Below are positions 7,072 through 10,785 of a DNA stretch of 44,328 nt, piece by piece. The notes under the pieces are model-generated. The model worked only from the letters and a program-made list of their open reading frames with translations. It was not told the origin of the DNA and searched no databases. The translations under genes and the position numbers were made by a program. The stretch spans positions 1 to 44,328 of the forward strand of contig JALHRC010000009.1 in assembly GCA_022841645.1 (NCBI GenBank), in the 5' to 3' direction. Origin of the DNA: Minisyncoccota bacterium. GTDB taxonomy: Bacteria; Patescibacteriota; Minisyncoccia; Phycocordibacterales; UBA918. Numbering within the stretch: the first letter of the stretch is position 1; each line of letters starts with the position of its first letter.

Positions 7072-7599
7072 CGGTGGACTTAAGGTTGTCTAACTCTGTT
7101 GAGAAGGGAACTGTCCGCCTCAGCCAGCGAGGAGTCGCCTCGCTGGCTGACCATTTGGGAGAAGATACGTGTCGTGCTGAAAAGCAAGGAGCACGTTTTC
7201 TCTCACCCACCAAGGCTCTTGCGCCTTGGTGGGACCGTTCTTTGAGTTTGAGGGGTTTTACACGGCGTGTGCTACATTTGCACGTTGGTCGGAAATACCC
7301 CTCACCCGAGCGGATTCGTCCGCTCGGGACCATTTGGGGCGAAGAGAGGACACGTGCCAGCTGGCTAGTGGCTGACTGTCGCTCTACCCGAGGGTGCAAA
7401 CCCTCGGGACTGTTTGGGTGGTTTGGACATCGTTGCTAACGGCGACCATGCCAGTACTACTCAGCCCGAGCGCTTGCGCTCGGGCACCCTTCAAAGCGTT
7501 TCAAGATGGAACGTTTTGAAGGGGAACGAACAGGAAATTGTCTTCTCAGAAGATAATCTACACTCTGTTCCTCTTCCACGCGCACTTGTGTGCGTGGGG
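7072..7599 (+). ncRNA. Upstream structured dual-spacer guide array (6 units, TIGR/bridge-RNA-like)
   Basis: Units at about 7072-7120, 7156-7205, 7249-7304, 7335-7386, 7415-7463, 7521-7573; each is stem, ~10 variable nt, hairpin, ~10 variable nt, stem, separated by GC-rich hairpins; G-U pairs favour the + strand. Confidence 0.8.
7239..7524 (+). repeat. 286-bp direct repeat, copy 1
   Basis: Identical by eye to 9346-9631. Confidence 0.93.
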
Positions 7600-7621
7600 C
7601 ACCTTGACAGGAGTAATCAGA

Positions 7622-9157
7622 ATGACCCGATTCATCGGAATCACCCATCGGGTGAAGCATACCGCCGACGGCGAGGCGCGACCGACACTGGTCGTGCTCG
7701 TCGAGGGTGACAAGACGACGCGCTACGAACTCGATAATGAACAGGCCGAACTCGACTTCGTGCTTGGCAGGTTCCCGACGGCGTGGCGAAACGCCACGCC
7801 CGAGGACAATCCGGCCAACTTCGCGCCGCACCACGGCAAGTGGAAGAGCGTGAGTACGGGCGAGTCCTCGGATGGTATCCCGGAGTGTCAGCTGCGCCGC
7901 GAGGGCAAGATCCTCTATCGGCTTCGACAGGTGCCGGCTGCCTTCGACGGTCTCTGCTCGGGCGACCGCGTTGGAATGATCCTCGGCGGTTCCGGCGATT
8001 ACCTCGCCTACGCACTCTCGCGGCAGGCCATGAAGATCGGCGCTGCCGTGTTGCGTATTCCGGCGTTCGTGCTCAAGGCACGGCGCGGGGAAGCGAATGT
8101 TGCGGAAGACGCCATGCTCCTGGCCACGCTCGTGCGTGACGAGGAGCGCAGCTTCTACCCGCTCGCTGAGACCGATCAAAACCTCATCCGCGCGCGCGAG
8201 TCCTGGCGGGCCCTTCACGAAGCCATGCAGGCGCGTATCGCCGCCGAGCAGCGCAAGCGCCAGCTTGTCATCGGTCAGATCTTCACCGCCCCCGACGGCA
8301 TCTACCCCGAAGGCGGCATCGAGAAGGCCTACGATGCGATCAAGGCCTCCGACCCGATCCTTCAGGGGCTCGTGGCGGAGGAAGGGAGGCGTGAGCGCGA
8401 GCTCGTCGCCGCCCTCGAGAAGGTGCCCGCGTATACGCAGCTCCTTAAGCCTATCGAGGGCGTGGGGCCGCGTATCGCTGGACGCATCATCGCTGCCATC
8501 GTGGACATCCGTCGCTTCGGTGAAGACCTCACCGAAGAGGAGATGAAGATGATGGAGGAGAGCTACGTGCGCAGCGACGAGCACAAAAAGCTCGGCAGGC
8601 TTGCCGAGAACGCAGCGCTTGTCGGTGCGCGGCAGTACAAGACTGAGTACGCGCGCGTGGAGGCCATCGCCACCAAAGTGCGTGATGCGGGCAGGGCCGA
8701 TGAGGCCTGGCACCTCTTCGCACACCTGAAGGAGATGGAGACGCGTCGGAAGCTCCGCCGCAAGGCGAAGAGCCGCAGCGCCGCCAACCTCAAGAAGTAC
8801 ATGGGCGTGCACGTTCTGCCGGACGGCACCTTCCCGCGCCGTAAGCGCGGGGTGGTGGCCAACTGGCATGGCGATGCGCGCCAGGCGCTCTACCTGGCGG
8901 CTGACCAGTTCAATCGTCGGCCTGACTCGGTGTGGGGGAAGGAGCTGCGGGCCGCCAAGGCAAGGCTCCGCGTTATCCACCCCGAGCCAATCATGGTGGA
9001 GAACGGCGGTGGCAAGAAGGTGAAGCGCTACACCGATGGCCATATCCACAAGATGGCCATCTGGCGGACACTCTCGCGGTTCGTCGAACGGCTCTACGTG
9101 GAGTGGTCGGCGCTGGAGGCGCCGCCCCGGCAGCAGGAGTTGCCGAAGGCGGCGTGA
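7622..9157 (+). CDS. IS110/Nop-domain RNA-guided protein (Tas-like) with degenerate RuvC-like N-terminus, 511 aa
   Basis: AGGAG RBS then ATG 7622; KPIEGVGPRIAGRIIAAIVDIRRF and SAANLKKYMGV match the IS110 C-terminal (Transposase_20/Nop-like) pattern; C-terminal GHIHKMAIWRTLSRFVERLYVEW; N-terminal FIGITH, VGMILGG and AEDAMLLA appear to align with IS110 DEDD motifs but lack most acidic residues. Confidence 0.8.
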   Translation: MTRFIGITHRVKHTADGEARPTLVVLVEGDKTTRYELDNEQAELDFVLGRFPTAWRNATPEDNPANFAPHHGKWKSVSTGESSDGIPECQLRREGKILYRLRQVPAAFDGLCSGDRVGMILGGSGDYLAYALSRQAMKIGAAVLRIPAFVLKARRGEANVAEDAMLLATLVRDEERSFYPLAETDQNLIRARESWRALHEAMQARIAAEQRKRQLVIGQIFTAPDGIYPEGGIEKAYDAIKASDPILQGLVAEEGRRERELVAALEKVPAYTQLLKPIEGVGPRIAGRIIAAIVDIRRFGEDLTEEEMKMMEESYVRSDEHKKLGRLAENAALVGARQYKTEYARVEAIATKVRDAGRADEAWHLFAHLKEMETRRKLRRKAKSRSAANLKKYMGVHVLPDGTFPRRKRGVVANWHGDARQALYLAADQFNRRPDSVWGKELRAAKARLRVIHPEPIMVENGGGKKVKRYTDGHIHKMAIWRTLSRFVERLYVEWSALEAPPRQQELPKAA

Positions 9158-9163
9158 AGGGAT

Positions 9164-9953
9164 TGGTGGACAAACGTCGGACTGCTTTGAAGAGCGAGGC
9201 CTCTTTTGTCCACCACAGCCGGCGCGGCAACGCCGCGCCGGCTGACCATTTGGGAGATTTACAACGTAGTACCGTTTTGGGTGCTGCTCGACGTGTCTCC
9301 CACCCACCACGGCGCAAGCTCACGCAAGTGACGTGGTGGGATTGATCTTTGAGTTTGAGGGGTTTTACACGGCGTGTGCTACATTTGCACGTTGGTCGGA
9401 AATACCCCTCACCCGAGCGGATTCGTCCGCTCGGGACCATTTGGGGCGAAGAGAGGACACGTGCCAGCTGGCTAGTGGCTGACTGTCGCTCTACCCGAGG
9501 GTGCAAACCCTCGGGACTGTTTGGGTGGTTTGGACATCGTTGCTAACGGCGACCATGCCAGTACTACTCAGCCCGAGCGCTTGCGCTCGGGCACCCTTCA
9601 AAGCGTTTCAAGATGGAACGTTTTGAAGGGGGAACAAGAAGTTGACTATTCGTAAGGATGCTGGCGGCTTTGTTCTCCTCCCATATGCGCAAGTGTATGG
9701 GACCGTTCTTTACAGTTTGAGGGGTGAGAAGCGGAGTGCGCCCACTCGCGACATCCGAAGTACCCCTCACCCGAGCGGAGTAATCCGCTCGGGACCATTG
9801 AAGCGACCTGTGCTCCGCTGTGTTGACGGCCCGACCATTGTCGCTTCACCCGAGGGTGCAAACCCTCGGGAGTGTTTGGGTGATGGAAGCGGAACTGCGC
9901 CTACTTGCGCGGTAAACCTTTGTCACCCAGCCCAGCCGGCAAACCGGCTGGGC
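9164..9953 (+). ncRNA. Downstream guide array, block 1 (9 units)
   Basis: Units at about 9164-9215, 9251-9302, 9356-9411, 9442-9493, 9522-9570, 9628-9678, 9718-9769, 9799-9848, 9877-9929; same architecture as the upstream array. Confidence 0.8.
9346..9631 (+). repeat. 286-bp direct repeat, copy 2
   Basis: Identical by eye to 7239-7524. Confidence 0.93.
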
Positions 9954-9960
9954 TTTTTTT
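9930..9960 (+). terminator. Intrinsic terminator inside the array
   Basis: gcccagccgg-caaa-ccggctgggc followed by T7. Confidence 0.8.
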
Positions 9961-9992
9961 AGAAAAACGTGGTATTTTGTAGAAGAAAGTTT

Positions 9993-10785
9993 TGGTCGAC
10001 TTGGCTAGCCCTGCTGCAAAGCGTTGCTATGTTTGTCGATCACGGCCACCAGCGAGGCGCTGCCTTGTTGTTGGCTGAGAATTTGGAAGAAGAATCAGTC
10101 ATTGCCGTAAGGCTTTGTTCCGTCTTTCTTCCACCACCGCGGCGTTTGAGCCGCGGTGGACCGTTCTTCACCCTAATGGATTACTCCGTTAGGAACCGTT
10201 TGAGCCATGTACGGCACGCTGCGCTTTGCGTTTCGGCCGAAATGTGGCTCAACCCGAGGGTGTACATCCTCGGGAGTATTTGGGTGGTGATGCAAGAAGT
10301 GCTCTAAAGAGTGTCCGGCACGGTACCACCCAGCCCGAGCGCATGCGCTCGGGCACCCTTCAAAGCTTTTCAGATTGGAAATTTTTGAAGGGGAGACGTA
10401 TCGAGGTCTGCCTGTATGGGTTACCCAACCCTTGTTTCCCTCCACGTGCACTTGTGCGCGTGGACCTTGTTCTATATTAGAGTTTAAGGGGTGCTAAGCA
10501 CGATGTGGTCATGTCCACGAGTTGCTGATTACCCTTTACCCTAGCGGATTCGTCCGCTAGGGACTGTTGAAGCGACTTCCGGATCGTTGCCAAGAGTGTG
10601 GCGAGCGTTGACGTGTCGCTTCACCCGAGGGTGCGAACTTTCGGGAGAATTAGGGTGGTTACGAGACCGTTGCTCACACATATGGTGAGTGGCAGCACAA
10701 CTACCATCCAGCCCGAGCGCATGCGCTCGGGCACCCTTCGGAACATGGACATATGGTTGCGAGAACGCACGTCATTCTGTCTTCC
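9993..10785 (+). ncRNA. Downstream guide array, block 2 (8 clear units plus 1 degenerate)
   Basis: Units at about 9993-10042, 10084-10133, 10201-10251, 10281-10332, 10390-10441, 10485-10538, 10568-10623, 10651-10710, with a degenerate one at about 10740-10785. Confidence 0.78.

Follow-up and report, generated by a model that had tools for sequence, protein, structure and literature searches.

The stretch of DNA analysed here, termed the window throughout, is a contig of 44,328 nucleotides (nt) from a Minisyncoccota bacterium (GenBank assembly GCA_022841645.1, contig JALHRC010000009.1), whose genome is assembled as 1.12 Mb in 57 contigs. Between positions 7072 and 10816 the window carries a gene, tas, present once in the genome and surrounded by three arrays that together comprise 23 guide stem-loops plus a single degenerate unit. 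The gene (7622–9157, + strand; product P0001, 511 residues, TasR type) has AGGAG 8 nt upstream of its ATG, and the tandem units lie on the same strand on both sides of it, with terminators that read on the + strand. Folding of the region 7060–10830 with a pair-span limit of 75 nt yields a regular series of stem-loops.

Array 1 (7072–7598, +), as given by the same fold, lies upstream of tas. Its guides, lettered by the class of their closing stem, are A1 (7073–7119), B1 (7156–7205), C1 (7249–7304), D1 (7335–7386), E1 (7415–7463) and F1, which spans 7528–7570 by fold, or 7521–7573 if its closing stem is taken as GGGGAACG/TGTTCCTC. One separator hairpin follows each guide (7120–7150, 7206–7233, 7305–7328, 7387–7408, 7464–7485 and 7575–7598), and a further hairpin, X (7487–7523), is located between the E1 separator and F1. 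Array 2 (9164–9954, +) begins 7 nt past the tas stop codon and consists of A2 (9164–9215), B2 (9251–9302), C2 (9356–9411), D2 (9442–9493), E2 (9522–9570), hairpin X (9594–9630), F2 (9631–9676), C3 (9718–9769), D3 (9799–9848) and E3 (9878–9928). It is closed by an intrinsic terminator (9929–9960, +) with an 11-bp stem containing nine G-C pairs, followed by T7; this terminator is the E3 separator itself, and is the top-scoring one in a scan of the region. Array 3 (9993–10816, +), which the fold and a MAFFT alignment of arrays 2 and 3 identify as an old copy of array 2, contains A3 (9993–10042), B3 (10084–10133), D4 (10200–10252), E4 (10281–10332), hairpin X (10356–10392), F3 (10393–10438), C4 (10485–10538), D5 (10568–10623) and E5 (10653–10709), and ends with a degenerate F-like unit (10740–10785) and a weaker, terminator-like hairpin (10786–10816). 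The promoter scan of the region found no sigma-70-like promoter ahead of the arrays; the sole sigma-70-like match (10832–10860; TCGACA, 17 nt, TATTAT) falls after array 3 and before typA.

Each unit measures about 100 nt and opens with a guide stem-loop of 43–59 nt, whose closing stem of 7–9 bp mostly begins with UG and ends with CA, and in which inner hairpins are visible in the 75-nt pair-span fold. The guide is followed by the separator, a GC-rich hairpin of 22–38 nt, after a gap of 0–4 nt (0 nt in most units, 1–4 nt at E5 and the F units), and then by a linker of 5–15 nt ending in UU. Box C/D-like words (CGA ... UG or CUU ... UG) adjoin the stems clearly in A1, A3, D1, D3, D5 and F1, and are present throughout the units of the related genome G107. 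A tRNA-like ACCA tail on the separators, as a signal for RNase P or Z, was considered and dropped, the word after the separator being only A-S-N-N-U-U. Tandem Repeats Finder reported no part of the array, Rfam gave no match at the gathering threshold in the whole window, and none of 27 blastn hits of the array scaffolds to the genome lay outside the array.

The protein P0001 scores 114.6 bits against the NCBIfam model NF052498 (TIGR_Tas_endo; cut-off 100), has no Pfam match, and aligns by sequence with the TIGR-TasR structure 9mty_A (E 4e-9). An AlphaFold2 model built on 50 relatives (predicted local distance difference test score 93.2, predicted TM-score 0.88) comprises an N-terminal RuvC-like domain, a coiled coil and a C-terminal Nop-like RNA-binding domain. 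A Foldseek search with this model returned 9mty first (E 6e-9, TM-score 0.56 on the target), followed by the IS621 bridge-RNA recombinase 8wt9 (E 9e-6) and TasH 9w03 (E 5e-4), with nothing else below 0.01. The N-terminal family word is R-x-I-G-I-R-H-R. At the first acidic slot of the RuvC domain P0001 has T8, and none of the 51 aligned family sequences has D or E there (R in 29, V in 7, Q in 6, A in 3, T in 2, S in 2); these residue counts refer to the first slot. The related CsTasR has R8 at this position (10.64898/2026.09.09.750476). An IS110 transposase with a bridge RNA was ruled out by the sub-threshold score of P0001 against the IS110 family model NF033542 (34.5 bits, cut-off 140) and by the missing D at the first slot.

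The TIGR_Tas_endo score, the matches to 9mty, the first-slot residues and the anatomy of the units together indicate that the locus is quite probably a stem-loop TIGR-Tas system belonging to the CPR (candidate phyla radiation) clade, an identity that the preliminary description of this DNA had not recognised. The system as such is already known, the paper on TIGR-Tas dating from 2025 (PMC12045711) and descriptions of the CPR stem-loop clade from 2025–2026. For that clade an enlarged, inactive RuvC domain, RNA-guided repression in place of cleavage, and the absence of a Y/H processing loop have been described, together with guides that have long stems, spacers of about 10 nt and a loop hairpin, in arrays on both sides of tas (10.64898/2026.09.09.750476). 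Because its RuvC domain is without the first catalytic residue, the TasR complex of the window most likely binds and blocks DNA rather than cutting it, as judged from the alignment. P0001 is longer than the 374–377-residue homologues of G074 and G107, which lack residues of about 48–109 and 301–386; in the model, these sites correspond to a β-rich insert within RuvC and to additional helices within the Nop domain. In total length, some more distant relatives (508–639 residues) equal or exceed P0001.

The preliminary description had proposed that the closing stems fall into six classes, each with its own separator, which recur in a fixed order. Both statements hold. After the exact duplicates C2, D2 and E2 had been dropped, the closing arms are 0.69 identical in 27 same-class pairs compared with 0.38 in 183 different-class pairs (Mann-Whitney p 4e-11), and the separators 0.74 compared with 0.55 (p 1e-8), the pairs not being independent. 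With the duplicates and the degenerate unit set aside, the nearest neighbour of every scaffold (20 of 20) belongs to its own class. The order reads ABCDE-X-F, gene, ABCDE-X-F-CDE-terminator, AB(-)DE-X-F-CDE and the degenerate F-like unit, and the MAFFT alignment places arrays 2 and 3 in the same unit-by-unit order. The missing C of array 3 had also been seen correctly; at its place the guide is absent, and a C-type linker and a separator remnant (10172–10193) are left. Hairpin X, which was not in the earlier list, is 37 nt long and invariably stands between E and F.

Compensatory change in the closing stems, likewise claimed at the outset, is borne out by 40 stem positions compared in classes A to E: 18 are invariant, nine are changed on one side, eight differ in both partners but still pair, and five are classed as other owing to a register slip at A1. 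Overall, 130 of 136 closing-stem cells are paired, most of the misses arising from the same one-base slip. The claim that both spacers and the inner hairpin had been completely replaced throughout does not hold, since in arrays 1 and 2 the C, D and E units have identical spacers, indeed identical sequence, and the dual-spacer cores of the other same-class pairs (27 pairs) are near background without being at zero signal (0.505 identity compared with 0.486 for different classes, p 0.03). The nearest neighbour of a core lies in its own class for six of 20 units, where 2.5 are expected. The older copies combine scaffolds that are 70–100% alike and bear compensatory changes with cores close to background.

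Among 127 other genomes of the genus, tas was found in four, at 43–69% identity per segment, and was absent from the remaining 123; blastn detected no array DNA in common between the window and these four. In two of them, G107 and G074 (loci L088 and L089), the system occupies the same place between fusA and tuf, according to flanking sequence read by eye. The window locus lies elsewhere, between a small GIY-YIG gene and typA (flank 6710–7030). The differing sites and the absence of tas from 123 of 127 genomes indicate that the locus changes place or is frequently lost; a mobility gene was not observed.

Despite the lack of common array DNA detectable by blastn, the arrangement is maintained. 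An A word occurs within 7 nt past the tas stop codon in the window genome, G107 and G074, and in all three X, F, the linker CGTTCTTT and C follow one another in that order. In the syntax shared with these relatives, the tas ribosome-binding site is preceded by an E-like unit, its separator, X, unit F and a last hairpin, and the final separator serves as terminator too. The six scaffold types are positional: A opens the array just past the tas stop codon, E closes an array or precedes X, F comes after X and lies adjacent to tas, and a characteristic linker stands ahead of C. Hairpin X aligns across five genomes, with double changes at six of its 12 predicted pairs. It is the sole part of the arrays with a sequence recognisable across the five genus genomes, and is AU-rich and 37–41 nt long over the window and loci L088, L089, L090 and L091. 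Its 3' GGGG also serves as the start of the F closing stem, which implies that the X and F structures compete or stack. X could be a signal for processing or for the expression of tas, and the class-specific separators may likewise guide either step.

A different array grammar was seen in genome G091 (locus L090), where short separators of other sequence recur three times in the order TCCCGT, TCTCCG, TCCGYC over 3290–3900 and 5500–6300; this recurrence indicates that ordered scaffold types are not peculiar to the window genome. Between G107 and G074 the alignment is 71% identical over 1789 nt, with scaffolds and the inner hairpin of F kept and the spacer windows different. In this orthologous comparison, which is of the kind proposed as a check in the preliminary description but one step removed from the window, spacers change at fixed scaffold positions.

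A fixed order might also be a frozen record of descent, in which position has no role, stems drift freely and blocks are simply copied. The collinearity of arrays 2 and 3 agrees with this, as do the lineage-specific scaffolds (blastn-short of the window arrays against 75 other loci gave no hit at E 0.01 or less) and the published divergence of stems even inside one array (10.64898/2026.09.09.750476). However, the positional rules, i.e., A past the stop codon, X before F, CGTTCTTT before C and the separator that acts as terminator, are found again in further species of the genus with blocks that were not copied recently from those of the window, and both the sequence and the pairing of X have been kept in five genomes. 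We consider a frozen record unlikely.

The fixed order stems from block duplication, as the preliminary description had stated. A direct repeat of 298 nt flanks tas, its first copy (7227–7524, +) containing units C, D, E and hairpin X, and its second (9334–9631, +) being 99% identical. This copy is recent and accounts for the spacers that C1, D1 and E1 share with C2, D2 and E2; arrays 2 and 3, and the two CDE series within array 2, are old copies. Such repeats are common around tas: in a self-comparison of 76 sources, i.e., 75 related loci and the window, of which four are duplicate records and many are short, direct repeats of at least 40 nt were found in 37, and repeats of at least 300 nt in 19, in many cases with one copy on each side of the gene.

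Since the 298-nt repeat is longer than short-read k-mers, it might in principle be an assembly artefact, and part of the symmetry between the two ABCDEF series with it. The only sequencing runs found to contain the stretch are four from a single study, which is probably that of the source sample, and no RNA run is among them. In the Logan assembly of all four, the graphs break at the edges of the repeat, which means that its placement depends on a choice of path. However, the shared unitig of 286 nt, mapped in three of the four runs, has depths of 88, 112 and 71 compared with 41–54 for the outer flanks, roughly double the flanks in two runs (112 compared with 54 and 46, and 88 compared with 48 and 43) and some 1.5-fold in the third (71 compared with 50 and 41). 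Furthermore, both in-edges and both out-edges exist, the assembled path is the sole linear one through all pieces, and G107 also carries a near-identical unit on both sides of tas (4117 and 6089, with one mismatch in the core). Given the raised depth, the duplication was taken as real, and an artefact is very improbable.

Two side observations came from the same graphs. The unitig holding F1, tas, A2 and B2 (7495–9375), for which the same depth as the flanks is expected, is at 70–84 against 41–54 in runs X2–X4, about 1.5 times the flanks, and at 16.7 against about 8 in run X1, some twice the flanks; this may reflect GC bias, additional copies, or strains that have tas in common while their arrays differ. 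Run X1 also contains a low-depth contig (5.5) of a related strain that matches 9765–9882 with 10 differences, joins 7253 to 9765, and has 290 other letters in place of 9882–10966, which includes array 3. Array content therefore differs between co-occurring strains.

A genome scan gave 31 loci with Tas relatives and a metagenome scan 42, with full-length matches at or below about 52% protein identity and hence no close orthologue in these collections; the assemblies in which relatives turned up are Parcubacteria or Patescibacteria. Automatic stem-loop calling in 25 sources, with every unit compared with all others of its source, gave 10,160 pairs, the scaffold being defined in this survey as 20 nt on the 5' side plus 38 nt on the 3' side. 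Among pairs with a scaffold identity of at least 0.97 (n = 18), the core was at least 0.9 identical in 16, at background in two and intermediate in none; among those at 0.9–0.97 (n = 22), it was below 0.7 in 20; and in 16 of the 22 pairs that combine a scaffold of at least 0.9 with a core below 0.7 the stem-loops differ in length, all of these counts coming from kin and from automatic calls, which overstates their independence.

The location of the change is sharply defined. Along an identity profile of 117 paralogous unit pairs from 18 sources, the closing stems are 79–95% identical and the 30 nt downstream 59–93%, two sharp windows drop to 23–31% and 20–37%, and the inner hairpin stands at 57–62%. 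The profile is unaffected when the source that contributes most is omitted (73 pairs, 17 sources), and the 12 pairs of the window itself display the two-window pattern with more noise. On sequence grounds, the low-identity windows are the two spacers, as expected of a stem-loop TIGR-Tas system, whose units have two spacers of about 8–12 nt. Blocks are duplicated, scaffolds persist with compensatory change, and change is confined to the spacer windows. The part of the preliminary description that spoke of spacer replacement stands insofar as cores change far more than scaffolds and do so in two bounded windows, a pattern that fits wholesale replacement and equally fast divergence with scaffolds kept alike by selection or gene conversion.

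Our working account, held at slightly less than even confidence, is that cores diverge by substitutions and small insertions or deletions that are tolerated or selected only in the spacer windows, and that scaffolds are kept alike by structural selection and short gene conversion. Gradual change is favoured by the pair in locus L013, which is intermediate (scaffold 0.95, core 0.75) with scattered substitutions, by the variant contig of run X1, in which four of the five listed differences fall in the 34-nt core of D3 and one in the scaffold, and by the weak class signal left in the cores.

Alternatively, the dual-spacer core, or each spacer, could be swapped as a cassette inside an unchanged scaffold slot after block copying, either through recombination with a different array or strain via the conserved flanks or through some acquisition activity, so that renewal would be discrete and not a matter of drift. 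The bimodal distribution of cores at near-identical scaffolds and the differing stem-loop lengths fit such swapping, or else a homogenisation of inter-core segments through gene conversion, and locus L008, where the inner hairpin is kept and just the two flanks of about 10 nt differ, favours swapping. Four paralogues in locus L023 have 57 of 58 scaffold bases in common, the AT-rich linker included, with unrelated cores of 36–41 nt at 41–57% identity, and the blocks of this locus are mosaics in which segments of 32–74 nt at 88–97% alternate with background segments of about 40 nt. The L023 pattern requires either very efficient homogenisation of scaffolds or replacement. However, the same mosaic would arise from gene conversion confined to inter-core segments; no donor sequence was found; and no candidate enzyme was detected within about 10 kb, nor is one known for any TIGR system in the accounts consulted (PMC12045711; 10.64898/2026.09.09.750476). 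The L013 pair and the X1 variant contig are intermediates by substitution only, and the weak class signal in the cores (six of 20 units, 2.5 expected) also speaks against replacement. Cassette replacement is, in our view, possible but on the unlikely side. A wider proposal, to which we attach similarly guarded belief, is that guides are renewed in a manner unlike CRISPR adaptation, with block copying by unequal recombination creating spare slots and cores exchanged as cassettes while scaffold, separator and position stay fixed. If this were true, the six-type order would be a working syntax, comprising a start unit, an end unit and an X-F connector to tas, that survives turnover.

Judging from the published relatives, the locus would most likely work according to the following scheme. 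Transcription would proceed along the + strand, and cuts within the linkers would release individual stem-loop guides. The closing stem of each guide would keep open a loop with two spacers of about 9–10 nt separated by the small inner hairpin. A TasR dimer would bind one guide, and at an 18-bp DNA site each of the two spacers would base-pair with a different strand. Arrays grow by the copying of multi-unit blocks, probably via unequal recombination between look-alike scaffolds, after which the scaffold is kept with compensatory stem changes and the two spacer windows lose all likeness.

Several points weigh against this scheme. The proposed inactivity of the RuvC domain is deduced from a single column of the alignment and from a relative described in print. 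Box C/D-like words vary among the units, the remaining classes having U-A variants or nothing clear when read by eye. The pairs counted, being kin and called automatically, are less independent than their numbers suggest, and the L023 paralogues, with near-perfect scaffolds and unrelated cores of differing length, run counter to divergence by mutation. No target was found either: a self-target search of the genome without the array, using 18-mers assembled from both spacers in two geometries and 36 registers for 20 units, remained at control level, with 38 and 32 hits at two mismatches or fewer compared with 27 and 28 for two wrong-geometry controls, and one hit with a single mismatch where about 1.3 are expected by estimate.

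The neighbouring genes, all of a housekeeping kind, encode, as assigned by Pfam, DnaB, DUF2157, GDYXXLXY, GIY-YIG, TypA, M23 peptidase, pseudouridine synthase, DUF1194 and CysRS proteins. No integrase, reverse transcriptase or Cas1-like gene was detected by Pfam among the neighbours within about 10 kb, which upholds the earlier statement that the locus is unlike CRISPR and has no acquisition gene nearby. Membership in CRISPR-Cas was also rejected on the grounds that Tandem Repeats Finder reports no constant repeats and that there are no cas genes among the neighbours.

The origin of spacers is stated to be open in PMC12045711 and 10.64898/2026.09.09.750476, the difficulty being two spacers that have to fit a single folded unit and the absence of adaptation genes. 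As far as searches go, and leaving aside the supplementary table and TIGRSafari annotations of 10.64898/2026.09.09.750476, an ordered, block-copied organisation with change confined to spacers is not in print. The word stem 'duplicat' is absent from the available text of that preprint and occurs once in that of PMC12045711, with reference to CRISPR repeats; passages of 10.64898/2026.08.11.744272 contain neither 'duplicat' nor 'acquisition'; judging by titles, none of the tigRNA papers listed in a literature search deals with array evolution; and, of the papers searched, PMC12045711 and 10.64898/2026.09.09.750476 alone combine TIGR-Tas and Patescibacteria. The locus and its relatives offer a concrete and testable picture of array growth, in which blocks are duplicated, slots persist across species of the genus, and change is confined to two windows of about 6–9 nt at background identity within each spacer. 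The question of spacer origin thereby becomes measurable on a series of strains, as substitution or swap, with or without conversion tracts.

The closest known counterparts are stem-loop TIGR-TasR systems of the CPR clade, such as that of CsTasR from Candidatus Staskawiczbacteria, which, like P0001, is a Nop-domain Tas protein of about 500 residues with an enlarged RuvC domain devoid of the catalytic residue, and a short C-terminal tail without Tyr or His. In both systems the arrays lie on both sides of tas, the guides have long closing stems and two spacers of about 10 nt with an intervening hairpin, and adaptation genes are absent. The available text of the CsTasR preprint mentions none of four traits present here, i.e., ordered scaffold classes, block duplication, class-specific separators and a conserved X; moreover, the stem is preceded here by NUU, mostly AUU or GUU, compared with CUU in the CsTasR account. 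The dual-repeat system of TaTasR (9mty; PMC12045711) resembles the present one in protein fold, dual spacers, a single effector and the absence of any reported protospacer-adjacent motif or adaptation module, and differs in its uniform edge and loop repeats of 8–12 nt, guides of 36 nt and active RuvC domain, whereas the window has no uniform repeats, units of about 100 nt, and T in place of D at position 8.

The IS110/IS621 elements have in common with this locus the layout of RuvC, coiled-coil and RNA-binding parts, the second-best fold match (8wt9) and a structured guide with two loops; the differences are the missing first residue of the DEDD set and an array of many guides in place of one bridge RNA. 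Clusters of box C/D small nucleolar RNAs (snoRNAs) consist of dual-guide RNAs bound by a Nop-domain protein, and are said to grow by tandem duplication and guide divergence. Compared with them, the system described here would have DNA targets, and it has no K-turn/L7Ae module, no Rfam match and no fibrillarin partner. Such snoRNA clusters are mentioned in the Discussion of PMC12045711. CRISPR arrays, finally, are likewise tandem guides beside an effector gene and ended by a terminator; the arrays of the window differ from them in lacking a constant repeat, cas1/cas2 and leader-end polarity, in growing by blocks, and in carrying two spacers in every guide.

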